A model generated the notes under the pieces. That model was not told where the DNA came from and did not search any database. It saw only the letters and a list, made by a program, of their open reading frames with translations. The position numbers and the translations under genes are program-made. A stretch of 64,000 nucleotides of DNA from Microgenomates group bacterium (GTDB lineage Bacteria > Patescibacteriota > Microgenomatia > UBA1400 > MFAQ01): positions 316,541 through 380,540 of the forward strand of contig JBAQNH010000002.1 in assembly GCA_049303575.1 (NCBI GenBank), in the 5' to 3' direction. Below are positions 5,415-46,908 of the stretch, piece by piece. Each line of letters begins with the position of its first letter. Within the stretch, counting starts at the first letter, position 1.

Positions 5415-6842
5415 ATGGCTGATACGCACGTAAGAACCAGAATTGCTCCCTCCCCAACAGGAGTGCCCCACATCGGCAATACCAGAACTGCCCTCTTTGA
5501 TTATTTACTCGCCAAAAAATATGGCGGCGAGTTTATTTTACGTATCGAAGACACCGACCAAAAGCGTCTGGTTCCTGGTGCTGTTGACAAAATTTATCAG
5601 ATTTTTGATTTCCTAGGTTTAAAAAGAGATGAAGATCCAGTTGTTGGTGGTCCATACGGACCCTATGTCCAAACTGAGCGCCTTGAGATATATCAAAAAT
5701 ACGCTTTAGAACTTGTAAACATGGGAGCCGCTTACTACTGTTTTTGTTCCGAAGAAAGACTCGAAGAACTTCACAAAAATAATCCTTTTGCCAAATATGA
5801 TCGTCACTGTCGCAATCTATCTCCGGAAGAAGTAAAAGCCAAATTAGACTCCGGTGCCCCTCATGTCATCAGGGTCAAACTTCCCGAAACCGGTTTCACT
5901 ACCTGGCATGACTTGGTTCAGGGAAAGCTTAGCTTACCCAACACCGAATGCGACGACAAAGTCTTGATGAAGACAAATGGTATTCCCACATATCATCTTG
6001 CCGTTGTTGTCGATGACTATTTGATGAAAATTAGCCACGTCATTCGAGGAGTTGAGTGGATGATGTCTACTCCTGTTCACCTTTTTCTTTTTGAATCCTT
6101 TGGTTGGGAGCCAACCGCTTTTCTTCATGTTCCCTTGCTTCTCGGTCCCGACAAAAGCAAACTATCCAAACGCCATGGTGCCAAATCAGTCCTCGAGTAC
6201 GCCGCCGACGGTTATCTTCCTGAAGCCATCAACAACTTTCTTTTTTACTTAGGTTTTTCCTACAAAGACAACTCTGAGTTACTCACTCTTGATCAAATGG
6301 CCGAAGTTTTTGATGAAAAAAGAATTCAAAGACAAAACGCTATTTTCGACATCCAAAAATTGAACTACCTCAATAGTCAATGGATCAAAAAACTTGACTC
6401 GGAAGATCTCTTTAATAGACTAAAGGCTTTTATACCCCAAGAATGGCAAGCTGAAAAAGCCAAAGTTATCTCCATTATTGATATTGCCAAAGAGAGAATG
6501 TTTACTCTCAAGGACTTCGCTTCTTCAGCCGAATATTTTTTCTTTACCCCAGAAGTCGACAAACAGCTAGTTCTCGAACAATCAACTCATACCGAAGAGG
6601 AAACAAAAAAATGGTTCGCGATTGCTATTTCTCTAATCGAAAATACCAAGGAATTTACTTCCGAAAATCTCCACGAAGAGTTTATGTCTGCCCAAAAAGA
6701 CTCCGGCTTCTCACCTCGGGAAGCTTTTATGTCTCTTCGTGTCGCCATTTCTGGACGTACTACCACCCCACCCCTCTTTGATTGTTTTGTAATCTTAGGG
6801 AAAGAAGAATCCCTCAAAAGGTTAAACTCCGTTTTTGCCTAA
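5415..6842 (+). CDS. gltX: Glutamyl-tRNA synthetase
   Basis: It has class I HIGH (PSPTGVPHIGNTRTALF) and KMSKS (KLSKRHGA) motifs, and a GluRS-type catalytic core. Confidence 0.85.
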   Translation: MADTHVRTRIAPSPTGVPHIGNTRTALFDYLLAKKYGGEFILRIEDTDQKRLVPGAVDKIYQIFDFLGLKRDEDPVVGGPYGPYVQTERLEIYQKYALELVNMGAAYYCFCSEERLEELHKNNPFAKYDRHCRNLSPEEVKAKLDSGAPHVIRVKLPETGFTTWHDLVQGKLSLPNTECDDKVLMKTNGIPTYHLAVVVDDYLMKISHVIRGVEWMMSTPVHLFLFESFGWEPTAFLHVPLLLGPDKSKLSKRHGAKSVLEYAADGYLPEAINNFLFYLGFSYKDNSELLTLDQMAEVFDEKRIQRQNAIFDIQKLNYLNSQWIKKLDSEDLFNRLKAFIPQEWQAEKAKVISIIDIAKERMFTLKDFASSAEYFFFTPEVDKQLVLEQSTHTEEETKKWFAIAISLIENTKEFTSENLHEEFMSAQKDSGFSPREAFMSLRVAISGRTTTPPLFDCFVILGKEESLKRLNSVFA

Positions 6843-8084: not shown

Positions 8085-8615
8085 ATGGAATCAGAAAAAT
8101 GTCCCAAATGTGGCGCCCCCTTATCAGCAATAACCGAAACCCCAACCGGTCGTAAACTTCAACGTTGTTCGACTGGTGTCTGGAATACGGAAACTCACAA
8201 AACCGATGGTTGTGACTACGTTAAATGGCTTGAGGTAGAACCTCAAACTCTGGACGAAAAATGTCCCAAATGTGGTCAACCTCTCGTCCTCCAAGTTACT
8301 CGTTTCGGTAAAAAAATGAAAAAATGTAGTGCTGGTGGCTGGGACAAAGAAGCCAAGCAGGCTACTGGTTGCGATTATGTCGAATGGATTAATGGGACCA
8401 CCGAAAAGCTCGACGAAAAATGTCCCAAATGTGGCGAGCCTCTAGTTCTTTACACTACTGCCGCTGGTAAAAAAATGAAAAAATGTTCCACCTCTGGCTG
8501 GGACAGAGAAGAGAAAAAAGCCACCGGCTGCGACTATGTTCTTTGGCTTAAAACCGAGTACAAACCTCAAGAGTCAAATGGCGAAGAATTTCTTCCCCCT
8601 GAAGACATCTTTTAA
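8085..8615 (+). CDS. Tandem (3x) topoisomerase-type C4 zinc-ribbon repeat protein
   Basis: It has three repeats of about 52 aa, each of the form CPKCG(A/Q/E)PL...(RFGKKMKK)C(S)..GW....GCDYV.W. This resembles the zf-C4_Topoisom ribbons of TopA. Confidence 0.5.
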   Translation: MESEKCPKCGAPLSAITETPTGRKLQRCSTGVWNTETHKTDGCDYVKWLEVEPQTLDEKCPKCGQPLVLQVTRFGKKMKKCSAGGWDKEAKQATGCDYVEWINGTTEKLDEKCPKCGEPLVLYTTAAGKKMKKCSTSGWDREEKKATGCDYVLWLKTEYKPQESNGEEFLPPEDIF

Positions 8616-20292: not shown

Positions 20293-20305
20293 AAATCCTT
20301 ATCTG

Positions 20306-20378
20306 TTGCCGAGCTAGGATTCGAACCTAGAATATTCGCCTCCAGAGGGCGACGTCCAACCAATTAGACGACTCGGCA
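20306..20378 (-). tRNA. tRNA-Gln (anticodon CUG)
   Basis: Manual cloverleaf: acceptor UGCCGAG/CUCGGCA with the U1-A72 pair typical of bacterial tRNA-Gln. D-arm is GUCU/GGAC. Anticodon stem is UCGCC/GGCGA with loop CUCUGGA. T-arm is CUAGG-UUCGAAU-CCUAG. Length is 73 nt and no CCA is encoded. Confidence 0.8.
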
Positions 20379-34896: not shown

Positions 34897-35182
34897 TGGC
34901 TCACCACTCAGTAGAATTGCCTCGCGGTTTGCCAACTGCTTGCCGGCAGTATTACGGTCGCGCGAGACGAATTTTGTATCCCGCCTGCGGGCGGGATGAT
35001 TTGCCTTCGGCAAAGTGCCAACTTCGCATTCAGCGATTGTGGCGAAGCTCTCTCAATATATGGCTCGTTTCACAATCTCGCCATATAAATATCAACTAGT
35101 TAGGAGAGTATTTTACTATCTAACATTTAATGGTTGAGATATCATTGTCCTGACGGCAAAAATGCCTGCTTCTCAGGCACAA
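34897..35182 (+). repeat. Structured repeat copy A (modules Y+Z, long form, + orientation)
   Basis: It is about 90% identical to 38475-38791. It contains atcccgcc-UGCG-ggcgggat and uugcc-UUCG-ggcaa tetraloop hairpins and a terminal ugccug-cuucu-caggca hairpin. Confidence 0.75.
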
Positions 35183-35223
35183 TGAACACAGGTTTAAATT
35201 AAGAACTATTAATGTTAATATAA

Positions 35224-35862
35224 ATGCATATGGAAGAATCCACTGAGGGTATTGAACTAAATGATAAAAAATCTACTACGTCTGTCGAGAAGACAAGGAC
35301 AAGATGGGAAGAACTTAGTATTGGTGCCAAAAAAAGTCTAGACAAGTTGTTTAAGCTTGGAGAGTATAAAGAAATATCATTAGCTGAGGCTATTGGACGT
35401 ATTGATAAAGCTCCTTCAATTATTGAAGACAAAGGAGTGAGTGTTTTTGGTCATGAAGTCGAAGACCCCCTAGCCTTTACGGTGAAATATTTGCAAGAAT
35501 CAATGAAAATACTGACAAAAAAAGAAGGTGATAGTGTAAATTGCGGTAGATTGTACGAAGTGCTTGGAGATATTTTTGCAAAAGATACATCCCATGACGA
35601 AAAAGTAGATAGGCGCGAGTGGGATGAATTTATAATCGCACAATATGACGAAGCGATGCGAATATACAATGGGGCAGGAGATACAAGAAGATATTGGGAT
35701 GTTGACCTAAAGAATAATGTAATTAAGGGTGGCGTAGAAGATGTTGTTCTATCGAATGGGGAACACTATGGCTACAGGAAAGACTTACTTAATATGTTTG
35801 CTGAGGAGAGAAGAAAAAGAAGAGAAGAAGATCATAATATGCATCGAAATAAGAGCGTATAA
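35224..35862 (+). CDS. Hypothetical protein (212 aa), first gene of two-gene island operon
   Basis: ORF only. Its stop lies 8 bp before the next start. Confidence 0.35.
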   Translation: MHMEESTEGIELNDKKSTTSVEKTRTRWEELSIGAKKSLDKLFKLGEYKEISLAEAIGRIDKAPSIIEDKGVSVFGHEVEDPLAFTVKYLQESMKILTKKEGDSVNCGRLYEVLGDIFAKDTSHDEKVDRREWDEFIIAQYDEAMRIYNGAGDTRRYWDVDLKNNVIKGGVEDVVLSNGEHYGYRKDLLNMFAEERRKRREEDHNMHRNKSV

Positions 35863-35869
35863 ATGAGGT

Positions 35870-37600
35870 ATGGATGATGCAGTGGGAGGTTTTGAGATAG
35901 AAACAACAGATAATAATACTCCAAAAGCGGAAGCGGTGGAGAAACAAACTTCGAAAATTGAGGTGAAAGACGGTCGTGGAGAAAAAGCCGATGTAATACA
36001 AACGGCAGAATTCAAAACAAAACTTGAAAATGATAAAGTTGAAGAAAAGCTGACACAGTTTGAAAATTTAGTAGGAAAATACACAAAACAAAAGGTTTCG
36101 GAAGGATTTAAAATCAATGTCGTTTATGGTTCTGCCGGAAATGGAGAGGTGGTAGATGGAGTTCTTTCAGTGAATTTACCAACTCAAAACGAAATAGACA
36201 TTGTTCAAAATGATGAGAGAGCAAAACCATTTTTGGATGTACTGACAAAAGCGGGTACAACGTATAAGGAATTTTCATTGGCACTAGCTTCTTCAACGAC
36301 GATACACGAATCAGAACATATGATTATTGACAGTAGACCAAATTCACAACTAGCAAGGGATTTTGAAAGTGCTCAACCTCTTGATCAAAAAATTATTCTC
36401 GATGAAGCAGGCCACGCGTTGTCGCTTCTTGATGAAGGAATTACATACGCATTTCAAATGGAAATAGATAGTGGAAGCGAATTATTCCAGAAACTGGAGG
36501 GGGATAAACCACCGTCAGAGGAAAGTTTTACAATATCAACCAGAAAACGACTGGGTGAGATTCTCAGGCCAAAATTGAAAGAGTATATCGATAATGGAAA
36601 CGATATAGATGGAGATTTTTTAAAGTTTGCGGGTGAGGAGATGAAGAAACTGGGTATCGAAAAATATGTAGCGGAAGCGGAAAACGAGAGAAGAGAGAAA
36701 ATGGTTTGGAGGGAGGCAGAACCAGTGCTAAATGATTGGGAAGGCAGATTGGCGTCATATGAAGAAAAACACCGCACACAGATATCTAAATCATTAGGCA
36801 TTATGGCTCATCTATTTGGAAAAAATACTCCGGAAAAAATCAACGTCGACCTTCATTACTTGGCAAGAAGAGACAGCTCGAAAGGTGAACCTGTTTCTAA
36901 CTTAGTTGACAACAATCTATTAGCAAAAAATGATACAGACGTTATTTACTGGCTTGGTAAGGTCACTCGATTATCTAGTGATGGTCCAGAACAAATTGAG
37001 GAAGAAGAAAGAAGACAAACAGCAAAAATAATACATGAAATGATTCATCAGGATTTTCAAAGTGAAAACAGTGTATTTAAAGACGTGTTGAATGAGTCAA
37101 ACAATAATCCGGAGATTATTGAATTAAGGAAAGAACTTATGTCGGGTCAAGCCAACTATCTTGAACCAGAAGCTGAACTTACAGCCATCTATCTGGAACA
37201 ATACGCAGATAAAATTTTAAAGGAAGAAACTTCTAATGATGGAACATCCACAAGTCAACAAATAATTGACTATCGGTTAGATAATGATAGGTTTCAAGAA
37301 ATTTTCAATGCGGTTATAGAAGCAGATGACGCAGAAAAGTGGAAAGATGGCGGTCCGTATAGAAGCACACATGATGGTTGGAAAGGTTTATATACAGAAA
37401 AAAATGAAAACATCGTTTCTACGGCTCCAGAAGCTAGTAATCAACCTCGACCTCCTCACGAGCTTTCAATCTACGAGCTAGGAACAAAAATAACCGATTT
37501 TTCTCTAATCGAAAAGTATGTTATAGAAGGAAAACAGATGGATTTACTCTTTGTAAAGGAACTGTACAAACTGTTTTTAGCTCAAAAAAATACTAGGTGA
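35870..37600 (+). CDS. Hypothetical acidic protein with two HExxH motifs (possible duplicated metallopeptidase-like fold)
   Basis: 576 aa with TIHESEHMIID (around residue 146) and IIHEMIHQDF (around residue 390). No signal peptide is present. Confidence 0.4.
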   Translation: MDDAVGGFEIETTDNNTPKAEAVEKQTSKIEVKDGRGEKADVIQTAEFKTKLENDKVEEKLTQFENLVGKYTKQKVSEGFKINVVYGSAGNGEVVDGVLSVNLPTQNEIDIVQNDERAKPFLDVLTKAGTTYKEFSLALASSTTIHESEHMIIDSRPNSQLARDFESAQPLDQKIILDEAGHALSLLDEGITYAFQMEIDSGSELFQKLEGDKPPSEESFTISTRKRLGEILRPKLKEYIDNGNDIDGDFLKFAGEEMKKLGIEKYVAEAENERREKMVWREAEPVLNDWEGRLASYEEKHRTQISKSLGIMAHLFGKNTPEKINVDLHYLARRDSSKGEPVSNLVDNNLLAKNDTDVIYWLGKVTRLSSDGPEQIEEEERRQTAKIIHEMIHQDFQSENSVFKDVLNESNNNPEIIELRKELMSGQANYLEPEAELTAIYLEQYADKILKEETSNDGTSTSQQIIDYRLDNDRFQEIFNAVIEADDAEKWKDGGPYRSTHDGWKGLYTEKNENIVSTAPEASNQPRPPHELSIYELGTKITDFSLIEKYVIEGKQMDLLFVKELYKLFLAQKNTR

Positions 37601-37658
37601 AGATACGTCTGACGAGTTCCCTAAATCCACTTAAGATAATAATATAAGATACATTAAG

Positions 37659-37837
37659 TTTTGCGTTTTCTTTTCATTTTCGTACGACTGCGGTAGTGCA
37701 TTCGAGCCGATGTGGAGTTTATCCGCCTTTGGCGGAGCAGGCAGTTGGCGAACCGCTAGGCCATTAGACCGAGCGGTGAGCCATTAAGTTAGTAATTCTG
37801 TTGGAAATAGGTCCGAACTTCGTTATAACACCTCACA
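37659..37837 (-). repeat. Structured repeat copy C (modules W+Y'+X', inverted orientation, ends at precise X terminus ...ttataacacctcaca)
   Basis: The reverse complement of 37738-37837 matches 38421-38520, the start of copy B. The 5' part (ttttgcgttttcttttc...tgcggtagtgc...ttcgagccgatg) matches 44930-44985. Confidence 0.7.
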
Positions 37838-37982
37838 TATTTTGTGACCCCCCAGGGTTGCTGGAATGGAACCACATTTGGGAAGAACTCAAATCGATCT
37901 ACCGCACGACTAGTCACCCTCAAACTCCAGCCCAATCTTACTACCAATAGGTTATGGAACTATCGATAAAACACAACACTTA

Positions 37983-38402: not shown

Positions 38403-38420
38403 ATTGTATCACTAGTAATT

Positions 38421-38791
38421 GTGAGGTGTTATAACGAAGTTCGGACCTATTTCCGACAGAATTACTAACTTAATGGCTCACCGCTCGGCCTAACGGCCTC
38501 GCGGTTCGCCAACTGCCTGTCGGCAGTATTACGGTCGCGCGATACGAATTCTGTATCCCGCCTGCGGGCGGGATGATTTGCCTTCGGCAAAGTGCCAACT
38601 TCGTTGTCACATCTTTATGTTCGTCACAAGATCGCCTTGAGCGATTGTGACGAAGCTCTCTCAATTATGGCTCGTTTACCAATCTCGCCATATAAATATC
38701 AGCTAGTTAGGAGAGAATTTTACTATCTGATATTTTAGGATTGAGATAGCATTTGGCCTGTCGGCCAAAGTGCCTGCTTCGCAGGCACAAT
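38421..38791 (+). repeat. Structured repeat copy B (modules X+Y+Z, full long form, + orientation)
   Basis: It starts with tgtgaggtgttataacgaag. It contains the same UGCG and UUCG tetraloop hairpins as copy A, plus an extra ggcc-uaac-ggcc hairpin and a 24-nt insertion. Confidence 0.75.
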
Positions 38792-38907
38792 AAGACGTTA
38801 TTTGGGTACTCGTGATAATAAAAACACACTTTTTAATCTCTATTAACTGGTTAGATTCTTGGGCATTATATCCTTAACAATCCCGTTAGGGTAAAATAAG
38901 ACCAAAT

Positions 38908-39420
38908 ATGAAGAATAATTTGTTGATAAGTCTCCTTATGTGTTTGATGATATCCATCATACTTTTTGCTTATGCCCCAAAAATCTTGGCGGAAGAAACT
39001 TGTGTTGTTGAGCCAATTTCTTCATTTGATGACAGCTCGTCATGTAGATATACCTCGTATAGAGGGTCTGATGATAATTTTTATGAGTCTTGTTATCAAA
39101 AATATCTACTAAGAAAAAATGATTGGGAGATAAGGTGTTTTAGATATTGGGACGACAAAAACAAGATTACCCCAAGTACGAATCAAACACCAACGGTTGC
39201 ACCTGTAATTCAGAACACTCCTCCAGCAACCACTCCAAGTCCATCACCCATTAAAAAAATAATCAAGAAAATTATTACTCCTACCCCAACAGAAGAAATC
39301 GCAAGTAGTTCAGGATCAACATTTAATACCGCCACAGTTTCAGGAATAACAACATCAAAAAACGGGTTCTTGAGCTGGATATTGAAAATATTTAGAATAC
39401 TTAATATATTGAAGGATTAA
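38908..39420 (+). CDS. Hypothetical secreted protein with Cys-containing N-domain and Pro/Thr-rich linker
   Basis: A signal or TM segment is followed by a Cys-rich segment, then TPSTNQTPTVAPVIQNTPPATTPSPSP, then a hydrophobic C-terminus. Confidence 0.35.
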   Translation: MKNNLLISLLMCLMISIILFAYAPKILAEETCVVEPISSFDDSSSCRYTSYRGSDDNFYESCYQKYLLRKNDWEIRCFRYWDDKNKITPSTNQTPTVAPVIQNTPPATTPSPSPIKKIIKKIITPTPTEEIASSSGSTFNTATVSGITTSKNGFLSWILKIFRILNILKD

Positions 39421-39457
39421 AAATTGTATTCTCTCTAATTCATAATAATCTCCAACA

Positions 39458-40129
39458 CTACCTTATTTTTTCTTGCACTTGTTTACTCTTATCCTCAACC
39501 AAATATTTACCTAAATTACATTCTTGACACCGAGTTGCTAAATTGTCTACTGAATTACCCCCACCATCTTCTGGTCTGACAATGTGATCCATTGATAATA
39601 GTTTACCGTCTTTTGATCCTAAACCACAATCTACACACTTAAAGTTATCTCTTTTGAGCACCATATACCTAGTTGCTGGTCCAATCGATTTTCTAAATTC
39701 TCCCGCTTTAATTGCTTTTTTTAAATGGCTTAGGTCAATTCTTCCTCTTGATAGAGCTAATCTATGGGCTACTTGAACTGTTCTTAGTATACCTAACAGA
39801 CCAACGTACCTCTGGATACTTCGTACCGTGACTATTAGATCAAGCTTATCTTTAATCTCACTACAAGAATATCCATCTTGGTATAAATTTCTAATTTCGT
39901 TTTCATAAATTGATAATTTACTACTCCTAATTCTATTCTCTCTTGTCTTTACTGATGCTTTAGTACTTAACCCTTCATTCCTTTTCAGCTTCATTACCAG
40001 GGTTTTTTCTTTTAACCAATTCATAATTTTATGACTATATCTTAATGGATATTGTTTCCTTATTTCATACATGGGAATGCCCTCGCTGTATAGCTTCAAT
40101 ATCTCAAATTTATTTTCAGACCATTTCAT
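39458..40129 (-). CDS. HNH endonuclease with N-terminal HTH-like region
   Basis: The HNH motif is CVDCG...DHIVRPEDGGGNSVDNLATRCQECNLGK. Confidence 0.6.
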   Translation of the reverse strand: MKWSENKFEILKLYSEGIPMYEIRKQYPLRYSHKIMNWLKEKTLVMKLKRNEGLSTKASVKTRENRIRSSKLSIYENEIRNLYQDGYSCSEIKDKLDLIVTVRSIQRYVGLLGILRTVQVAHRLALSRGRIDLSHLKKAIKAGEFRKSIGPATRYMVLKRDNFKCVDCGLGSKDGKLLSMDHIVRPEDGGGNSVDNLATRCQECNLGKYLVEDKSKQVQEKIR

Positions 40130-40136
40130 TCGAATT

Positions 40137-40424
40137 CTATACTAATTGATTACTTAAAAGATAAGAGTATACAGAAGTACAAAAAGCAGCAAAATAACCA
40201 AAAGCTTGAACAACGTTTATTGTTCGATTCAATTTATTACTGTCATCTATATAAATTCCAAAATCTTCAACAAATTCACTCATCCCCATTTTTACTCCGT
40301 TAATAGTTTTTATTTCCCCCTTATTTTTTAGTTTAGGGATTTTTCTAGTAGCTTGATAAAAATGAAATATTGTCAACATCAAGAAGATAAAACTGAAGAC
40401 AATCCAAAGAAGCTGATTATTCAT
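40137..40424 (-). CDS. Hypothetical small membrane protein (95 aa, 2 TM)
   Basis: Hydrophobic segments lie at both ends. Confidence 0.3.
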   Translation of the reverse strand: MNNQLLWIVFSFIFLMLTIFHFYQATRKIPKLKNKGEIKTINGVKMGMSEFVEDFGIYIDDSNKLNRTINVVQAFGYFAAFCTSVYSYLLSNQLV

Positions 40425-40526
40425 ATCTTATGATACAACCTAGTGATAATAATCCCAGAACATTGCTTTGCTTTTGTATAAAATCAAAAAATCAAAATGT
40501 TTTATCAATAGACTATAATTTGATTA

Positions 40527-41390
40527 ATGGAAACTGAAAAATCACCCAAGAGAAGTTTGAGAAAGATATTTCGAAATGTGTGGTTATATTCTTTAATTCT
40601 CTTCATCGTTGGGTTAATAGGATTTAGATTTTTGGGATGGGAAGCTGGTTTTAGTAGAACAGCAACCATCGTAATTATGGGTGCATCAGCTTTGGTTGGT
40701 GGAATATCTTTTTTGACATGGATTTCAATCCTAATCTTCTCAAATAAATTTTCTCGAATCATCATAATACTATTGGGGATTTTTATATCATCTTTATACG
40801 CTTTAACCATATATTCAGTCACTTATATTTTTGTCTACAGCCGTGTATCTCAAGGAAGTATGGATACACTGGTTGATCTTCAATATATTCTTCCATTACT
40901 CATTTTTGGTCTCACCTTAGGTGTTTGGTTGAAAACAAAGCCGTTATTGATAAAAGGAATCGTTATCGCTGGGTTATTGGTCACATACTTAGCGGGAAGA
41001 AATTATGCAGTCGAGGCATATAAACCTCTTACCCAAGCCTTTAATTTTATTGACCGGGCTAATTCTACTGAAGGGTTGGCTTGGACAAATGAACCCGATG
41101 ATAATAAGTATTTGGAAGGAGAAAGAAAATACGTAGCTTTATACAAGCAAGCTTCCGAATCAATTAAAAATGATGTTTTTCGCTCTTGGCCAAGACAATA
41201 TTTTAACGATCTCTACCGAGTAGAAAAGAAAGTTTTAGATTATGATGAACAGCTCTTTACAGGGAAATTGAAAATCTCTCAAGAAGAAATAGATAAAATC
41301 ACAGCAGAAGTCATGAAAGAAAGAAGTGATATTCTTGCTTCGGGGTTTTCAACTCCATATTGGACTGAGTTCTTCATGGTTGTTAAATAG
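40527..41390 (+). CDS. Hypothetical polytopic membrane protein (287 aa)
   Basis: It has 5 or more predicted TM helices in the N-terminal two-thirds, followed by a soluble C-terminus. Confidence 0.35.
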   Translation: METEKSPKRSLRKIFRNVWLYSLILFIVGLIGFRFLGWEAGFSRTATIVIMGASALVGGISFLTWISILIFSNKFSRIIIILLGIFISSLYALTIYSVTYIFVYSRVSQGSMDTLVDLQYILPLLIFGLTLGVWLKTKPLLIKGIVIAGLLVTYLAGRNYAVEAYKPLTQAFNFIDRANSTEGLAWTNEPDDNKYLEGERKYVALYKQASESIKNDVFRSWPRQYFNDLYRVEKKVLDYDEQLFTGKLKISQEEIDKITAEVMKERSDILASGFSTPYWTEFFMVVK

Positions 41391-41453
41391 TTATTCCCCA
41401 CGAGTGGGGTTATACAAATTACATTTTTTTCTTTAAATCATAATAATACTTAT

Positions 41454-42026
41454 ATGACTAAGTCAATGAAATATTTATTAGTCTCACTAATAGTAATTAC
41501 CGCATTCTGTGTTTTATTCAACAGACAATCAAAAAAAGTTCTTATCTCCAATACAACTTCTAATCTTGCAAAAACGTCTGTAGATGAAAAGACGGCTTGT
41601 TCTGATGTTATTGCCAAGTATGCAACAGAAAGTGGAATACCAAAATATTCAGGAGATATAAAACAGATCAATTTCAATTCTTTGCCAGAAGCAAAATTAT
41701 TTAAGACTACAATCACCAATTCGTACAAAGAAGGCGCAAACTTTGCCGGGCACTATAATTTATCATTGTGGGGATGCGGAACTGATTGTTTTGGAATGTC
41801 AATTACTGATGTAGAAACGGGGAACATAATAGAATATTCACCTATACATGAAGGCTATCATCTAGATGGCTATAACGTCGATAATCGCTTAATAGTATTC
41901 AATCCCATTAATGCGGGAATGGAAAGAAAAATATACAAATTATCCGAATCGAGCAATAAGACTAACGCTCTTGAACTAATATGTTCGGAAATATCTCAGA
42001 ACGACATGTATCAATATCCTGAATAA
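41454..42026 (+). CDS. Hypothetical secreted/signal-anchored protein (190 aa)
   Basis: The N-terminus has a signal-like hydrophobic segment. The rest is unassigned. Confidence 0.35.
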   Translation: MTKSMKYLLVSLIVITAFCVLFNRQSKKVLISNTTSNLAKTSVDEKTACSDVIAKYATESGIPKYSGDIKQINFNSLPEAKLFKTTITNSYKEGANFAGHYNLSLWGCGTDCFGMSITDVETGNIIEYSPIHEGYHLDGYNVDNRLIVFNPINAGMERKIYKLSESSNKTNALELICSEISQNDMYQYPE

Positions 42027-42041
42027 TAATTAGCATATTTA

Positions 42042-42509
42042 TTGGTAATGAATAATCGAACTATAAAAAACATGAAACTAACTGAAGTTAAAAGCTGGAT
42101 TTTTAATAAATGCAAAAAAAATAGTGCGGCTATTAAAAAGATAACTTTGGGTCAATGGATAATAATTGCCTTATTGCTTTTAATATTATGGCAATTAATC
42201 GACGCTCCTATTTTTAGAATGCATTTCATTAAAAGAAGCTATATATTTGAAAAAAATAAAGGTGAATGTATCCTCAATTATGGATCACAGACATGCAGTG
42301 TGTCGTTTTATACTCGACCAAGTATATTTATCGTAATTACAAAACATGAAGGGGACGTCATTTTTGCAAAAAGCATTAATTTTTTAGGGAAATCTGTATT
42401 TAAAGACGGGACAGCCTATTGTCTCACTATACCGAAACCCAATTTCGTCACAGGATGTCGTTACAACGGAATAATATATAAGTTTGTTGACGTCAACGAA
42501 GAGAAATAA
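42042..42509 (+). CDS. Hypothetical membrane-anchored protein (155 aa)
   Basis: It has a single TM (WIIIALLLLILWQLI). Confidence 0.3.
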   Translation: MVMNNRTIKNMKLTEVKSWIFNKCKKNSAAIKKITLGQWIIIALLLLILWQLIDAPIFRMHFIKRSYIFEKNKGECILNYGSQTCSVSFYTRPSIFIVITKHEGDVIFAKSINFLGKSVFKDGTAYCLTIPKPNFVTGCRYNGIIYKFVDVNEEK

Positions 42510-42572
42510 ACTGAAAAACAAAAGAGTGAAAAAAGACGCAATCATATGCTTACAAATTTATAATCATGAAAT

Positions 42573-44915
42573 GTGAAACTGAAGAAAATCAAAAAAATCA
42601 AAGTTTACAAATCATTCCAAGATTTTTCTTGGCAACCTTTTTTAAATAATGAAACATTTCATGATGAAGTAAATATTATTTATGGCGAAAACGGAAGTGG
42701 CAAAAGCTCAATAGCCAATCTGTTAAAAAATGTTTCGGAAAATAAAGATTTTGGTAAATACAAACCAATCGAAGCGTGTTTAGTCTTTGATGACGGTGAA
42801 AAAAAATATCCAGTAAACAACGACTGGGATAATAAAATCCCAAAAGGTTCTATTTTGTTTTTTGATCATGAATTTGTTGACAAAAATGTTCATATGGGGA
42901 GTAGGCGAGATACAACACAAAACGGACAAGAACAGGAATCAGGCAAAATGATTATTGAGTTTGATAGCAACGCTATAAATTTGCGCGGTGTACGAGACGT
43001 TGCGAAAAAAGCGAAAGAGGAACAAGACCAGAAGATTAAAGATTTCAATTCAGCAAATAAGGATTACTTGTTCAATATTTTGACTGATGATGAAAAACTA
43101 TATTATCAAAACTATAAGGATAATACCGAAGATGAAATCAAAAAAGTAAAACAAGACTTGGAAAAAGAGAAAAGGGAAGCAGGAAAAAATTTTGAAATTG
43201 ATCAAGGCCTACAGAAGAAAGTCACGAGCATTCAGAGCGGAATAAAAAGTTTGCCGACAGAAGAAGTTGAAATCTCTCTTTCAGATATTGAAACCTATCA
43301 GAAAATTTTTGATTTTGATCTAAAGGAGCGGGCATCAATAAAGGCCGAACAAGATTTGATTGATAAAGTCAAAACGCACAAAATATTTTTTGAAACTGGT
43401 TTTGAAATCAGAAAAACACATCAAAACCGATGCCCTTTTTGTCAATCCGAAAACGAAGAAGCGGGGATTAAGAAAATTGTTGATTTGTTCAAGCAAATTT
43501 ATGACACGACATATAAAACACAGGCACAACAATTTGAAAAAGATAAACAAACCCTACTTGGTGAAATTTCACAAATTACGAAATCAGTCTCCGATTTTGA
43601 TTTGAATAATATTTTTCTAGAACTTAAAAAATTGGATCAAAACTATAAGATACCATATATCTACTCTGTTGAAGACGAAGAAATATACAAAAAGCCAGCT
43701 GTGAAAGAGATAAAAGATTTGAGCGATAAAATATCAAAACTTACAAAGCCAGACAAAGAGAACATCAAAGATCTTTATACAAAAGTAAAAACTGAATTTA
43801 AGGTAATTGAAGCGTTTTTCAAGGCAATTGGTGATTTCGTAGAACAAAGGAACAATCTAATTGTTAAATTCAAATCTGACAATACTGACGAAAAGCTTCA
43901 AGCACGAATTGCCACAAGCAGTAAAAGAATTGCTGAAGTTGAAAAAGTGTTGGTTTTTATCAATGGGAACAAGATAAAAGAGCAACAAAAGAAAGTGCAG
44001 AAAGAAAAGGAACTGAAAGTGATGCAAGATGTTTTAGCTACGTTAAAAATAGAATACGAAACGGCATTGAAAAATTATGAGGAACATTGCTCAACAAAAG
44101 CCTTTTCAAATCTATTGTCCAAAATTCAAGATTATTTCAAGAATTTCAATTTCAGTTTTAAGCTTAAATTGAAAACAGACCCAACAGGTAACAAAACCGA
44201 ATTTCCTTTTGCTTTCAAAGTTTTGGATTTTGAGGGCAACGAACGGGATTTTAATGAGGGGCTTTCTGAAGGGGAGATTCAGGTTTTGTCCCTTTGCTTT
44301 TTCTTTGCTTTTCTTGATATACAAAAAGAAAAAGATCAAAAAATACTTATTTTTGATGACCCAATCACGAGCTTGGATAGTAGCAATTTGAGCTATCTTG
44401 TTGATTTAATTTCAGAAGAACAAAATAACTTTTCACAAATATTTGTTTTTACCCACCACAGAACCTTTTTCAAATTTTTAAGAAAACGATTCGGACAACA
44501 AAAAATTGGGTGCAAGGAATTTAATGTCATTAGGAACAGAAAGGAGTTAGGCGGAAGCTTTTTATGTAAAAGTCATCAAACAGACTTTATGCCGTTGCTT
44601 AGAAATTTTGAAAGTGATTTGAGAAGTTGGTCTCCTTTAGATATAGAATTAAAAATAGTTGAGTACGGCCAGTATTTAAGATATGAGGTTGAAAAGTTCA
44701 TTAAGAACGAGCTGCTTCATATAAATGAAACAAAATTTGAAGATATTGTAGACGGAGTAAAAAACAACCAAAACATTAATGTTATAGATTTAGAAAAAAT
44801 TAAAGAAATATACTTATTTTGCAATTGGACAACTTCGCATGTCGATGTTGGTGATGATCATGGTCTTGATCAACTGAAAACTAAAATAATCGACTTTGTA
44901 TCCATAATTAATTAA
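42573..44915 (+). CDS. RloC/AAA_13-like Rad50-type ABC ATPase with coiled-coil CxxC zinc hook and C-terminal extra domain (candidate anticodon-nuclease/defense protein)
   Basis: It has a PrrC/RloC-like Walker A (IIYGENGSGKSSIANLL) and a long coiled coil containing HQNRCPFCQSE (CxxC hook). The ABC signature LSEGEIQ, Walker B ILIFDDP, D-loop SLD and H-loop FTHH follow. About 180 aa remain C-terminal of these motifs. Confidence 0.5.
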   Translation: MKLKKIKKIKVYKSFQDFSWQPFLNNETFHDEVNIIYGENGSGKSSIANLLKNVSENKDFGKYKPIEACLVFDDGEKKYPVNNDWDNKIPKGSILFFDHEFVDKNVHMGSRRDTTQNGQEQESGKMIIEFDSNAINLRGVRDVAKKAKEEQDQKIKDFNSANKDYLFNILTDDEKLYYQNYKDNTEDEIKKVKQDLEKEKREAGKNFEIDQGLQKKVTSIQSGIKSLPTEEVEISLSDIETYQKIFDFDLKERASIKAEQDLIDKVKTHKIFFETGFEIRKTHQNRCPFCQSENEEAGIKKIVDLFKQIYDTTYKTQAQQFEKDKQTLLGEISQITKSVSDFDLNNIFLELKKLDQNYKIPYIYSVEDEEIYKKPAVKEIKDLSDKISKLTKPDKENIKDLYTKVKTEFKVIEAFFKAIGDFVEQRNNLIVKFKSDNTDEKLQARIATSSKRIAEVEKVLVFINGNKIKEQQKKVQKEKELKVMQDVLATLKIEYETALKNYEEHCSTKAFSNLLSKIQDYFKNFNFSFKLKLKTDPTGNKTEFPFAFKVLDFEGNERDFNEGLSEGEIQVLSLCFFFAFLDIQKEKDQKILIFDDPITSLDSSNLSYLVDLISEEQNNFSQIFVFTHHRTFFKFLRKRFGQQKIGCKEFNVIRNRKELGGSFLCKSHQTDFMPLLRNFESDLRSWSPLDIELKIVEYGQYLRYEVEKFIKNELLHINETKFEDIVDGVKNNQNINVIDLEKIKEIYLFCNWTTSHVDVGDDHGLDQLKTKIIDFVSIIN

Positions 44916-44929
44916 CCCATAATAATTAA

Positions 44930-45210
44930 TTTTGCGTTTTCTTTTCTTTTTGCACTACTGCGGTAGTGCCGTTCGAGCCGATGTTTCGGCAGTTGTTGGC
45001 GAACCGCGAGGCCGACAGGCCGAGCGGTGAGCCAATTAAGTTAGCAATTCTGTTGGAAATAGGTCCGAACTTCGTTATAACACCTCACACTCAGAGAGTT
45101 TTCGCTCTCGTCAGGGTACATCGCCCGTGCGCCCGCCCTCGCACGGAGCGATGTGAAGGGCTTTTAAGTTGTATTACTATCAAAAAGAAAAAAGAAAAGA
45201 AAACGCAAAA
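44930..45210 (-). repeat. Structured repeat copy D (W+Y'+X' inverted) fused to an 80-bp inverted copy of the tRNA-Glu 3' trailer, bounded by 17-bp inverted repeats
   Basis: Bases 44930-45089 match copy C and are the reverse complement of the copy B start. Bases 45086-45165 are the reverse complement of 46691-46770. ttttgcgttttcttttc at 44930-44946 is the reverse complement of 45194-45210. Confidence 0.7.
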
Positions 45211-45276
45211 CGGGGGACAATTCCAGTTTGTCTTGGCTGTACTCTTTCGGGAAATATATGGTTAAATGAATGTAAG

Positions 45277-46908
45277 GTGAAATACATTTTGTATTGTCGA
45301 AAGAGTACCGATGAAAAAGACAAACAGGTCTTGTCCATTGAAGCTCAGATTGCTGAGCTTACCGAGTTCGCCATAAGGGAAAGGCTTGAGATAGTCGCCA
45401 CTTTCTCCGAATCAAAAACAGCCAAGACTCCAGGCAGACCAATCTTCAAGGAGGTGCTAAAGAAAATCGAAAGTGACGAGGCCGACGCCATTCTTTCCTG
45501 GCACCCCGATAGGTTGGCCAGAAACAGCATTGATGGCGGTTACCTCATCTATCTTCTCGACACAGGGAAGCTCCTTGACCTCAAGTTTCCTTCCTTTTGG
45601 TTTGATAACACTCCGCAAGGAAAGTTCATGCTCAACCTCGCTTTCGGTCAATCCAAATACTATGTCGATAATCTCTCGGAGAATGTTAAGCGTGGTCTTC
45701 GCCAAAAGATTAGGAATGGCGTCTGGCCTTCCCAAGCCCCTTATGGCTACTTGAATAATAAAATTACTCGGGGTATTGAAATCGATCCGGAAAAAAGCAA
45801 AGTCGTGAAAAAAGCCTTCGAAATCTTTGCAAAAGAAAAAGTTTCCTTCTCCGATGTTTCACTTCTTCTTGCCAAAGGCGGTATTCATAAAAGAAGTGGC
45901 AAACCAGTTGGTATCAGTCAAGTCCATAAAATGCTCACCAATCAGTTTTACATCGGCATCATGTCATATAACGGGGAATTTTTCGAAGGCAAACACGACC
46001 AATTCATCACTCGCCAACTCTTTAATAAGGTAAAGAGAAGACTAGAAGAAAAAGGCAACTCCAATTTCAAGTTTCGTGATTATGCTTTTTCCGGTCTCAT
46101 GCGTTGTGGGGAGTGTGGCGCGACTATTACGGCCGAAACTCACACCAAGCATTACAAAAACGGCACTCACCAAAAATTCGTGTATTACCGCTGTACCAAA
46201 AAGCTTAGACCTTGTTCACAACCATATTTACCAGAAGAAAAACTCAAAGATCAACTCCGAGGATTCATCTCCCTCGCCACACTCCCCAAACGCTGGGGGA
46301 ACGACTGGCTCAAGTGGTTGGAAAAAGACAAAGTCACGGGGCGGCAATCTGCAGATTCATTTTTTGAAAGATACAAACTAGATATACAAACCATTGATGG
46401 CAAACTCAACCTCTTACTTGATAGCTATCTTGATGGCACAATCAACTCTCAAACATACAAAGGCAAAAAGAACCAGCTCTTTACCGAGAAACAAAATCTA
46501 GAAGACAAGATAGCCAAAACAAAAGCAAAGGGAAGCAGTTGGCTCGAACCCATGACAGAATTCGTCTTTTGCGCTATACGAGCGCAAAAAATCGCGCGAC
46601 CGAATACTGCTAGCGAAGATCTGCGGATCTTCGCCAAAAACATCGGCTCGAACTTCTTTTTGAAAGATAAACAACTTACATGGGAGATGAAAAAGCCCTT
46701 CGCATCGCTCCGTGCGAGGGCGGGCGCACGGGCGATGTACCCTGACGAGAGCGAAAACTCTCTGAGTGTGATCCCGGCGGGAGTCGAACCCGCGATCTTT
46801 TGGATGAGAACCAAATGTCCTAGACCACTAGACGACGGGACCATGTCTGAACCTGTATATTGTACCAAATTAGTGCGCCAATTTGACTTGATAGGTTCAA
46901 AAGTGTAA
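45277..46908 (+). CDS. Large serine recombinase (resolvase-domain + recombinase-domain + zinc ribbon + coiled coil); 3' end reads antisense through tRNA-Glu
   Basis: The catalytic N-terminus is KYILYCRKSTDEKDKQVLSIEAQ (the YxRVSTxxQ-type motif with the Ser nucleophile). A recombinase domain and a zinc ribbon (CGECGATITAETH...YYRCTK) follow. The start is uncertain, either GTG at 45277 or TTG at 45289 after an AGGTGA. The ORF has no stop until 46908. Confidence 0.7.
   Translation: MKYILYCRKSTDEKDKQVLSIEAQIAELTEFAIRERLEIVATFSESKTAKTPGRPIFKEVLKKIESDEADAILSWHPDRLARNSIDGGYLIYLLDTGKLLDLKFPSFWFDNTPQGKFMLNLAFGQSKYYVDNLSENVKRGLRQKIRNGVWPSQAPYGYLNNKITRGIEIDPEKSKVVKKAFEIFAKEKVSFSDVSLLLAKGGIHKRSGKPVGISQVHKMLTNQFYIGIMSYNGEFFEGKHDQFITRQLFNKVKRRLEEKGNSNFKFRDYAFSGLMRCGECGATITAETHTKHYKNGTHQKFVYYRCTKKLRPCSQPYLPEEKLKDQLRGFISLATLPKRWGNDWLKWLEKDKVTGRQSADSFFERYKLDIQTIDGKLNLLLDSYLDGTINSQTYKGKKNQLFTEKQNLEDKIAKTKAKGSSWLEPMTEFVFCAIRAQKIARPNTASEDLRIFAKNIGSNFFLKDKQLTWEMKKPFASLRARAGARAMYPDESENSLSVIPAGVEPAIFWMRTKCPRPLDDGTMSEPVYCTKLVRQFDLIGSKV
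46691..46768 (-). repeat. Native 3' trailer of tRNA-Glu (copy E), inverted partner of 45086-45165
   Basis: It contains the hairpins gagag-uuuucg-cucuc and ccgugcg-cccgcccu-cgcacgg. It is 68 nt identical to the upstream inverted copy. Confidence 0.7.
46769..46842 (-). tRNA. tRNA-Glu (anticodon CUC)
   Basis: Manual cloverleaf: acceptor GGUCCCG/CGGGAUC with one G-U pair. D-arm is GUCU-AGUGGUCUA-GGAC. Anticodon stem is UUUGG/CCAAA with loop UUCUCAU. T-arm is GCGGG-UUCGACU-CCCGC. Length is 74 nt, no CCA is encoded, and it resembles E. coli tRNA-Glu. Confidence 0.8.

Follow-up and report, generated by a model that had tools for sequence, protein, structure and literature searches.

A putative tRNA-Glu-targeting large serine integrase with two inverted copies of attP in a Microgenomates genomic island

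We identified an 8,347-bp island (38420-46766) inserted at the 3' end of a tRNA-Glu(CTC) gene in a 64,000-nt stretch of a Microgenomates group bacterium contig (hereafter, the window), and we consider it probable that the large serine recombinase (LSR) encoded by the island carried out this insertion itself. We class the system as a serine integrase that targets tRNA genes and has a dual attP. One attP overlaps the 3' end of the gene for the recombinase; it is duplicated, intact and inverted, in a segment that we call S, immediately 5' of the same gene. The layout is not peculiar to this genome; it recurs in 80 related loci, mostly from metagenome-assembled genomes (MAGs) of Microgenomates/Patescibacteria.

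The unoccupied tRNA-Glu attB, whose existence a preliminary description of this DNA had anticipated, was found in a contig from another sample (L084), which we retrieved by an exact-protein look-up with the ATG-start 136-aa ORF. The same type of look-up returned no match for the recombinase or for the GTG-start 139-aa ORF, and just one 1.5-kb contig for GreA. L084 is 100% identical to 47004-46767 and to 38424-37601 of the window, with a 5-nt overlap TCACA between the two segments, and the 8,347-bp insert is absent from it. Sequencing runs SRR28062796 and SRR28062503 contain this strain. Because L084 fuses tRNA-Glu directly to 38424 via the shared TCACA, 38420-46766 is an insertion, and the empty attB consists of both flanks joined through a single copy of this 5-mer. 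The presence of an occupied and an empty allele with 100% flank identity is direct evidence of current polymorphism at this site. The island is bounded by a very short direct repeat, namely, TGTGA in the same orientation at the attL core (38420-38424, the island's left end) and at the attR core (46767-46771), the latter, read on the minus strand, corresponding to tRNA nucleotides 71-73 followed by 2 nt. The tRNA-Glu(CTC) gene (46769-46842, minus strand), which provides the B' arm of attB, is intact after integration according to ARAGORN, Rfam (64 bits) and the empty site. The 3' end of the tRNA is restored, and across the family only a repeat of 4-8 nt (tRNA nucleotides 71-74 and beyond) is left at attL. 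The GC content of the island is 0.36, versus 0.41-0.44 in its flanks.

Next to the left core lies X'Z (38425-38791, minus strand), which comprises the P' arm of attP and a structured GC-rich region; its tail (38425-38519) matches that of X in S at 95% identity, and it includes a short segment b' (38532-38543). Homologous X'Z segments are found 1-4.6 kb to the left of the recombinase unit in three related loci (L001, L003 and L005). The cargo (38792-44929) has a GC content of 0.32 versus 0.41-0.44 in the flanks, and includes an HNH protein (39458-40129), an AAA_13 ATPase (42573-44915; PADLOC candidate PDC-S06) and further membrane or unknown ORFs. To the left of the island we found a decayed sister island without a recombinase, E2 (34897-37837), which carries cargo ORFs as well as a Z-type X' with a truncated tail (34897-35183) and, at 37653-37837, an S-type X that meets the flanking DNA (from 37838) at TCACA. 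The empty-site contig shares this last junction. A B'-like remnant behind tRNA-Gln (20305-20378) was dropped, as it had no BLAST support against the loci.

The recombinase ORF (45277-46908, plus strand; 543 codons from a probable GTG start) is supported by Pfam domains, by homologues and by a match to SPbeta SprA. Its product harbors the domains Resolvase (PF00239, E 2e-21), Recombinase (PF07508, E 3e-15) and Zn_ribbon_recom (PF13408, E 2e-11), confirming the earlier assignment to the serine recombinases and placing it in the large, integrase type. It has the nucleophilic Ser in its N-terminal catalytic domain and contains the motif YCRKST; R8 and S10 are invariant in 20 homologues, as are the zinc-ribbon residues C277, C280, C306 and C313 in homologues. 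Residues 49-410 align with SPbeta SprA (9dxh; E 5e-10), including the region after the zinc ribbon. As described previously, the ORF has no stop until 46908 and runs antisense through tRNA-Glu(CTC). The preliminary description took its last roughly 70 codons as the antisense of the tRNA trailer and the tRNA; the antisense run to 46908 holds, but the roughly 25 codons assigned to the trailer are element DNA encoded by a repeat arm (see below), leaving 46 from the host. More precisely, codons 1-496 are element-encoded, codon 497 of the 543 spans the junction, and the last 46 codons derive from host DNA antisense to tRNA-Glu and its upstream region.

The recombinase gene is enclosed by the inverted repeat that was reported as 80-bp copies at 45086-45165 and 46691-46770. 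We recovered this repeat as 81-nt arms, 45085-45165 being the reverse complement of 46691-46771 at 80 of 81 bases (99%; BLAST E 4.6e-36), and when a 13-nt indel is allowed the match reaches 45189 and 46654, respectively. The junction strings quoted for it are correct on both sides (...aacacc TCACA ctcagag at 45085 and ...ctctgag TGTGA tcccgg at 46767), and an assembly artefact can be dismissed, since the repeat recurs in related loci that were assembled independently (56 of 63). However, the interpretation of both arms needed revision. The right arm had been taken as the native trailer of tRNA-Glu, whereas the native trailer in the unoccupied allele is ATTACTAGTGATAC..., and it therefore follows from the empty-site comparison that 46691-46766 is element DNA. 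The right arm encodes a recombinase C-terminus (...KKPFASLRAxAxARA...S.SV) that is conserved in homologues located beside 11 different tRNAs, and only after its 'SV' do the homologues diverge into the antisense sequence of different tRNAs. The junction of X with the left arm, at 45085, did not arise by recombination with tRNA-Glu, as formerly suggested, but is part of an intact inverted attP copy; the true left junction, attL, lies 6.7 kb further left, at 38420. The 81-nt inverted repeat thus exists because the element carries this second attP 5' of its recombinase gene.

One might instead view 45085-46771 as a 1.69-kb IS-like element with 81-bp terminal inverted repeats inserted between X and tRNA-Glu, since a single gene lies between the repeat arms, and the arms both begin, at their outer edges, with 5 nt (TCACA) that agree with the tRNA end. 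We consider this extremely improbable, and rejected it, because the empty allele lacks the 8,347 bp from 38420 rather than the 1.69-kb segment, one 2-bp staggered insertion could not give rise to the inverted cores seen at 45085 and 46767, and no 'empty' X-tRNA junction was found behind some 100 other tRNAs of these loci.

For the tRNA-targeting integrase, attB would consist of the T-arm and acceptor end of the tRNA, followed by TCACA and the native trailer, and attP of the last ~115 nt of the recombinase gene (arm B), the 5-nt core and the tail of X', so that the predicted junction of the circle reads ...CTCTGAG TGTGA GGTGTTATAAC.... The P arm of attP, that is, B and its extension (46654-46766, plus strand), is the right repeat arm and encodes FFLKDKQLTWEMKKPFASLRARAGARAMYPDESENSLS. 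The proposal that the att site overlaps the 3' end of its own recombinase gene is thereby supported. The reconstructed attP aligns with the reverse complement of S over ~208 nt. A point against the model is that its P and P' arms show only weak symmetry. S itself (44930-45210, plus strand) can be divided into c (44930-44951), a hairpin (44952-44969), a' (44971-44986), the X core and tail (44987-45084), the core TCACA (45085-45089), B' (45090-45165, with an extension to 45189) and c' (45189-45210), the c:c' stem closing the whole duplicate. We place strand exchange inside the core (tRNA nucleotides 71-73 plus 2 nt), which restores the tRNA and leaves TGTGA as a direct repeat on both sides of the island; the CA crossover dinucleotide proposed earlier agrees with this placement, as TCACA includes CA. 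The TTCGA(A) T-loop-like motif shared by the tRNA, B and X arms may be the recognition feature. Because attP lies inside an ORF without a stop of its own, the reading frame of the integrated gene continues across the tRNA in antisense, while in the excised form the ORF would end 15 codons into X', the predicted proteins being 543 aa (integrated) versus 512 aa (excised). A circular intermediate would be expected on these grounds; neither a circular form nor an excision junction of the window element was observed.

We examined the family with this layout in no fewer than 120 protein clusters and in 80 loci. Of 67 related loci, 60 adjoin a convergent tRNA 3' end, with 11 tRNA identities represented, and where the inverted repeat is present it measures 78-191 nt, 17 of these repeats being 100% identical. 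An inverted X' tail, 95-100% identical, is found 0.7-6.7 kb to the left in 31 loci, the window included; in these mapped loci the left end shares a tRNA-specific core with attR as a direct repeat, which is 4-8 nt in most. The 4-nt core tracks the tRNA (TCAC, GCAC, CGAC, CCAC, CTGC or CCGC), and intact B.core.X' junctions exist in four loci (L083, L074, L082 and L001), which point indirectly to an excised, attP-bearing circle. The family has no close relatives among viral contigs, a profile query giving three weak or partial matches, and its recombinase is at most 27% identical to any annotated phage or plasmid LSR.

The preliminary description predicted that the recombinase flips the 1.6-kb segment between the inverted copies, as in phase variation of the Hin/Gin type. 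A near-perfect inverted repeat of 81-118 nt does enclose a serine recombinase gene, as in Hin/Gin, many contigs break exactly at the repeat, and the opposite gene orientation relative to the tRNA exists in two loci (L048 and L050). However, Hin and Gin are small invertases (~190 aa with a C-terminal HTH) acting on 26-bp sites with an enhancer and Fis, whereas the enzyme here is an integrase-type LSR of 543 aa with recombinase and zinc-ribbon domains. Its two sites are an attP-type site and a hybrid attR-type site; to our knowledge, attP-type and attR sites are a pair that canonical LSRs do not recombine. Moreover, ~95% of the loci share one orientation, the opposite one occurring in only ~3 of 70; in the latter, the flipped end bears the tRNA rather than X, as expected for integration via S, and assembly graphs are expected to break contigs at repeats anyway. 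We therefore find the predicted invertibility unsupported and such a switch very unlikely, although inversion of the 1.6-kb segment may occur by homologous recombination across the 81-118 nt.

Under the integrase interpretation, S may serve as a second active attP, through which the element could integrate in both orientations and recombine again with further tRNAs. Three loci (L018, L048 and L050) show the arrangement tRNA(+), core, B'-LSR, in which S-type sites have recombined exactly at the core. Equal activity of both attP copies, on the other hand, predicts about half of the loci in the opposite orientation, versus the ~3 of 70 observed. S could also double as a structured, insulating 5' leader with the c:c' stem beside the start codon. 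A stronger version, in which S is in practice only a regulatory leader or insulator, would place inward-facing terminators (hairpin plus T-run) on both sides of the recombinase gene and let the c:c' fold-back keep read-through transcripts from being translated, comparable to the IS10-type 'protection from outside transcription'. In its favor, S is always the immediate 5' neighbor of the gene, and 1-70 nt separate c' from the start codon; c:c' stems at this distance are found in ~50 loci and show covariation, as does a GC-rich hairpin in B that covaries between loci; S folds strongly (z = -8.3); and on the tRNA side there is an inward-facing, terminator-like hairpin with a T-run, the latter coinciding with the codons for the conserved KK(P/G)F. 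In a promoter/terminator scan of 44.7-47.1 kb, matches were no more frequent than in shuffled sequences. What speaks against a pure leader is that it would not need to copy the X tail and the tRNA-specific core to the nucleotide, that S-type sites in the three loci and, less directly, at the E2 junction are recombined exactly at the core, and that no strand-specific structure signal remains after composition control: the G+T-rich sense strand of S and X folds better, but the difference is gone after shuffling (z = -2.8 vs -3.1). Accordingly, we regard the leader-only reading as possible but doubtful.

Several conserved sub-parts go beyond the arms and core. Motif a (46638-46653, plus strand; 16 nt, codons KNIGSN) has a perfect inverted copy, a', in S, and a second match to it exists in most related loci; its synonymous sites are frozen across the family, with GGCTCGAAC in 66 of the 67 loci having motif a (81 examined). 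The coding segment b (46591-46602, plus strand) is complementary to b' in X'Z (a 12-nt match only in the window), and such complementarity, exact over up to 25 nt, is seen in 26 of 31 loci; after excision, the attP domain would be closed by pairing of b with b'. The closing stems of attP (b:b') and S (c:c') are 11-25 bp long, and a/a' is circularly permuted between them. Serine integrase att sites are known to need ~50 bp, and a pure double-stranded attP model leaves unexplained why the duplicate extends over ~208 nt and is bracketed by these extra stems and the frozen a/a'. These closing stems, together with internal hairpins that covary even inside coding sequence, might point to an att site that acts as a folded single strand of DNA or RNA, with the inverted copies or stem-closed domains as the substrate, analogous to integron attC or the CTX-phage attP hairpin. 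However, the structure z-scores are equal on both strands, no Rfam family matches, no rolling-circle or ssDNA replication gene was noted among the cargo proteins examined, and the substrate of serine recombinases is duplex DNA, both strands of which they cleave in a concerted manner, all of which makes this highly improbable. The Rfam search covered 34-47.5 kb at the gathering threshold and at E<=5, and found no family in X, S or B. We also rejected a bridge-RNA-like guide (IS110 bridge RNA or IS1111 seekRNA), as the protein is a serine recombinase rather than DEDD/RuvC-like, S is no guide with loops complementary to target and donor but duplicates the whole attP, to which it is identical and not complementary, S and X have no Rfam match, and strand-specific structure is absent.

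A further-reaching reading, which we consider unlikely, is that the unit is a self-contained control and rearrangement device. Its state-dependent C-terminus (46 antisense-tRNA residues when integrated, 15 X' residues when excised) would set the direction of recombination without a separate directionality factor, and the spare inverted attP would permit integration either way and cassette exchange or inversion between tRNA genes; in a variant of this reading, stem-closed att domains of ~250-300 nt would act as folded single strands. No universal accessory gene or recombination directionality factor was found in the 31 mapped elements, which speaks against the integrase interpretation. If the device reading were true, these elements would be a main force behind the deposition of cargo and the rearrangement of chromosomes in Patescibacteria.

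Compared with known systems, the integrase shares the resolvase, recombinase and four-Cys zinc-ribbon architecture of phiC31, Bxb1, A118/LI and SPbeta SprA, with detectable homology to the last (9dxh), and, like phage and integrative and conjugative element (ICE) LSRs, it shows conservative insertion, a very short common core and an attB restored in the empty allele. Unlike in those systems, the ORF lacks an own stop codon and runs across attP, the gene is accompanied by another, inverted attP, and conservation of the att region spans ~200-300 nt and includes closing stems. Mx8, which also targets a tRNA gene, and SSV-type integrases offer a parallel for a C-terminus changed by integration, but these are tyrosine recombinases with long tRNA-derived identity segments, whereas here a serine recombinase uses a 4-8 nt core and a duplicated attP. 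In the Mx8 and SSV integrases, attP likewise lies within the integrase ORF, so that integration changes the C-terminus (PMC4383910). TnpX and TndX of Tn4451/Tn5397 perform integration and excision without a directionality factor (PMC5704250), and those elements are likewise small with the LSR as sole mobility gene; however, their target specificity is low or different, they are not tRNA-targeted, and they have no long inverted attP duplicate. Tycheposons and Islander-type elements are likewise small islands that sit at the 3' ends of tRNA genes in streamlined genomes and carry a varying cargo, defence candidates among it. Their direct repeats are tRNA fragments of tens of nt, versus 4-8 nt here; nearly all of them use tyrosine integrases (910 of 937 in 10.1101/2020.12.28.424599), whereas the element in the window has serine recombinase domains only.

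The targeting of tRNA genes has been called a tyrosine-only trait (PMC4383910, 2014); we found no later literature contradicting this, nor any description of the present family in searches combining serine recombinase, tRNA and Patescibacteria/CPR. Our results thus extend serine-integrase biology to tRNA genes, and the family is large. The mapping of both ends and the shared core of 31 natural elements, together with the T-loop-like arm motif, offers raw material for integrase engineering, and the duplicated inverted attP, the closing stems and the frozen motif constitute a deeply conserved architecture. The elements range down to a minimal, recombinase-only form of 2.4 kb, which together with the cargo-bearing derivatives provides the very small Patescibacteria genomes with a system of mobile islands; some of the mapped elements also encode XRE-type HTH proteins, MFS transporters or the like.

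An inverted repeat of 81 nt with one mismatch pairs positions 45085-45165 with 46691-46771 (BLAST E-value 4.6e-36), and extends to 45189 and 46654 once a 13-nt indel is allowed. An 80/81-type match at this E-value is far beyond chance, and the preliminary description of the repeat, the adjoining tRNA-Glu(CTC) gene (46769-46842, minus strand) and the ORF was correct. Since the ORF between the repeat arms carries the Pfam domains Resolvase, Recombinase and Zn_ribbon_recom, it is, as proposed, the gene of a large serine recombinase (LSR); its start codon is probably the GTG at 45277, and it is indeed open as far as its first stop at 46908. The closest solved structure is that of SPbeta SprA (9dxh, E-value 5e-10), and identity to the LSRs of annotated phages and plasmids is at most 27%. 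It is a genuine LSR.

We took 80 related loci from species-representative genomes (protein identity to the window recombinase 49-83%). Those with informative titles are from Microgenomates-group Patescibacteria MAGs, about one third being labelled otherwise, possibly wrongly. A convergent tRNA gene abuts the ORF end in 60 of the 67 loci with enough downstream sequence, and eleven tRNA identities are found at the family loci (Glu, Lys, Leu, Val, Ser, Pro, Ile, Gln, Arg, Trp and Tyr). The upstream region and the 3' end of the gene share an inverted repeat of 78-191 nt in 56 of 63 loci (median 105 nt; 17 at 100% identity), and its outermost 3-8 nt are always the final nucleotides of the locus's own tRNA, for example, TCACCA, GCACCA, CGACCA, CTGC or CCGCCA. 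Judged by these loci, the layout of repeat, recombinase and tRNA is a family trait.

The right repeat arm, B, had been taken for the native trailer of tRNA-Glu. However, B encodes the C-terminal pattern ...GSNFFLxxxxL...KKPFASLRAxAxARA...S.SV, which is kept in all of the best 120 homologous protein clusters (43-91% identity). Right after 'SV' the homologues split into the translated antisense of differing tRNAs, with the antisense T-loop signature G.EP present in 72 of these 120 clusters, or, less often, into the antisense of a second repeat, X, giving RCYNEIRTYF. The supposed trailer is thus part of the element; in its native context, tRNA-Glu has the trailer ATTACTAGTG..., and a 136/139-aa ORF comes next.

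The X tail recurs in inverted orientation (at least 72 nt, 95-100% identical) in 31 loci, the window among them, 0.7-6.7 kb left of the recombinase unit. There it meets unrelated DNA via the tRNA-specific core, which repeats, in direct orientation, the core found at the tRNA junction. This pattern predicts attL at 38420, attR at 46767 and an empty site tRNA-Glu...GGGA TCACA ATTACTAGTG... for the window. The unoccupied tRNA-Glu attB, which the preliminary description had suggested seeking, was recovered in the Logan contig L084 (run SRR28062796), which is 100% identical to 47004-46767 and 38424-37601 and joins the two segments through a 5-nt overlap. Because L084 carries the empty allele, 38420-46766 (8,347 bp) is an insertion, and the existence of both an occupied and an empty allele between identical flanks implies recent integration or excision. 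The GC content is 0.36 in the insertion, 0.32 in its cargo and 0.41-0.44 in the flanks, and the 31 mapped elements span 2.39-8.35 kb. A three-way comparison of the upstream repeat block (S, see below), attL and attR shows that in most of the 31 loci attL and attR share just 4-8 nt, corresponding to tRNA positions 71-74, thus strand exchange must fall within this core. The proposed CA crossover dinucleotide falls inside this core. These junctions establish LSR-type insertion at tRNA nucleotides 71-74 with the tRNA restored. In L012, L030, L035 and L036, the trailer displaced to attL has no CCA after the core (TCAC joined to AAT...), and the sequence at the tRNA (TCAC joined to CA...) is that of the element, which thus seems to supply the tRNA with a CCA end encoded in the genome. 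At some loci the tRNA is replaced by a recurrent non-tRNA right flank, GTGAGCCAATTGTACCACCGGTGGAACC... and variants (L036, 7496-7540; L020, 7490-7544; L008, ~6472-6520), a type also seen in the tail of the homologue P0012; it is either a different target, likewise conserved, or an RNA gene that has degenerated.

We reconstructed attP from 46654-46771 and 38425-38514 as B.TGTGA.X', where X' is the left-end arm. Since it aligns over ~208 nt with few differences to the reverse complement of 44930-45189, the block S (parts c, hairpin, a', X, core, B' and c') duplicates the whole of attP, uncut and in inverted orientation, immediately 5' of the recombinase gene. In the 81-nt repeat, the B' half of S is paired with the B half left at attR, and the X half of S pairs with X' at attL (95% over 95 nt). 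The B.core.X' junction at the gene 3' end is intact in L083 and L074, with remnants in L001 and L082. The recombinase ORF crosses attP: the integrated form has 543 aa, the final 46 of them host-encoded, and the excised form is predicted to stop 15 codons into X' (...SLSVRCYNEVRTYFRQNY, 512 aa). The tyrosine integrases of Mx8 and SSV likewise have ORFs extending across attP (PMC4383910), a feature thus common to them and this serine recombinase. Our literature search found neither this LSR family nor an inverted second attP described; tycheposons are tRNA-linked islands, but overwhelmingly tyrosine-based (10.1101/2020.12.28.424599). Neither a recombination directionality factor (RDF) nor any other universal gene was found across the 31 mapped elements, for which the RDF-independent bidirectional LSRs TnpX and TndX (PMC5704250) provide a precedent.

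Excision would yield a circle with two inverted attP copies around the recombinase gene, and integration could proceed via either of them, in most cases the copy at the 3' end. S, the spare copy, would stay live after integration and might recombine with another tRNA attB, producing tRNA-flanked recombinase modules (as in L018), stranded cargo and, at least in theory, the inversion of DNA between two tRNA genes. Such inversions, driven by an integrase, have reportedly been proposed for Thermococcales. The alternative reading of the 1.6-kb segment between the arms as an invertible switch seems unlikely. In L018, L048 and L050, a same-strand tRNA is fused at the core straight to B' upstream of the recombinase, the product that would be expected from S, not the 3' attP, crossing with a tRNA attB. 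Stranded cargo may be represented by E2 (34897-37837), a decayed sister island in the main island's orientation with no recombinase. Its left X' (34897-35183) is Z-type with a truncated tail, and its head, read by eye, is attP-type with a b'-like stretch; two ORFs of no recognised kind follow (35224-35862 and 35870-37600), and the right X (37653-37837), whose head is S-type (c, hairpin, a'), passes at TCACA into unrelated DNA that begins at 37838. By these features, E2 is an integrant with S-type X joined to non-element DNA (type-b), minus its recombinase module. The 582-bp segment 37838-38419, holding the 139-aa ORF, is thus bounded on either side by a former att junction. In these four cases, the core is the exact point at which an S-type site meets a tRNA attB or, in E2, flanking DNA. 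Since S-side (opposite) orientation occurs in only ~3 of 70 recombinase-bearing loci, the two attP copies are unequal in outcome.

Several conserved features of the att regions go beyond what a plain duplex attP would account for, namely, their stems, motif a/a' and a coding hairpin. The c:c' stem closing S (11-22 bp) covaries between lineages, and its 3' strand ends 1-70 nt ahead of the start codon. A b:b' match (up to 25 nt exact) between codons QKIARAKN and X' occurs in 26 of 31 loci, and this pairing would close the attP domain in the excised form. Motif a (16 nt, encoding KNIGSN) recurs in S as a perfect inverted copy, a', but on the opposite side of the X core, so that the order is circularly permuted. 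The synonymous sites of a are held fixed, with GGCTCGAAC in 66 of the 67 loci where the motif was found (81 examined). The GC-rich hairpin within B covaries despite being coding. Folding z-scores of S are -8.3 (plus strand) and -7.7 (minus strand), and because the sense-strand preference vanishes under composition control, RNA, ssDNA and symmetric protein-binding roles are indistinguishable; S probably has a second role as a structured leader that insulates. A TTCGA(A/T)-like motif lies 17-21 nt from the core in all three arms (tRNA T-loop, outer B and X tail). We infer that it is a putative recognition element, which would account for one family using many tRNAs. Some 60-120 nt left of S, nine loci (L007, L009, L010, L025, L036, L038, L063, L066 and L072) share a conserved element, ...GCGGCCA/GCGCCATTTAAG..AGTTCTTTAAAA, with two interleaved inverted repeats of pseudoknot-like topology and a reading frame that varies among loci.

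The island's cargo includes a 780-aa AAA_13/SMC-like ATPase (42573-44915) matching the PADLOC candidate defence family PDC-S06 (E-value 2e-32) and, more weakly, LmuB, and a 223-aa HNH protein (39458-40129). In their place, the related locus L082 has a 1508-aa AAA_11/AAA_12 helicase, DUF4411 and a Peptidase_M78 pair. Judging by such annotations, cargo is variable and defence-like. The ~900-aa 'recombinases' (P0016-P0036, ~865-932 aa) are in-frame fusions: a second LSR gene has been entered at residue ~115 (motif AFGQSKYY) by an entire LSR element, which brings its own S (L088, 6151-10682; L089, 359-3112); L088 has a detached Resolvase N-fragment upstream (6151-6588). Proteins of fusion length form at least 17 clusters in the homologue list, suggesting a lineage targeting relatives' recombinase genes.

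Several TPA assemblies with family loci are labelled Pseudomonadales or Gammaproteobacteria, labels that look wrong. L070 (NZ_QPJS01000004.1) lies on a 233-kb contig of a cultured Bacteroidota strain, Schleiferia thermophila DSM 21410, with att arms nearly identical to those of L068 (Patescibacteria KatS3mg090 MAG), and may reflect contamination or a co-cultured episymbiont. The window also has an imperfect tandem duplication (8207-8380 and 8366-8539, 73% over 177 nt), not connected with the island. Contigs very frequently end exactly at the repeat's outer edge or within ~60 nt of the recombinase gene (L002, L013, L014, L020, L024, L027, L031, L034, L043, L056, L060, L088 and L089), and the family elements are a systematic source of assembly breaks in Patescibacteria MAGs.
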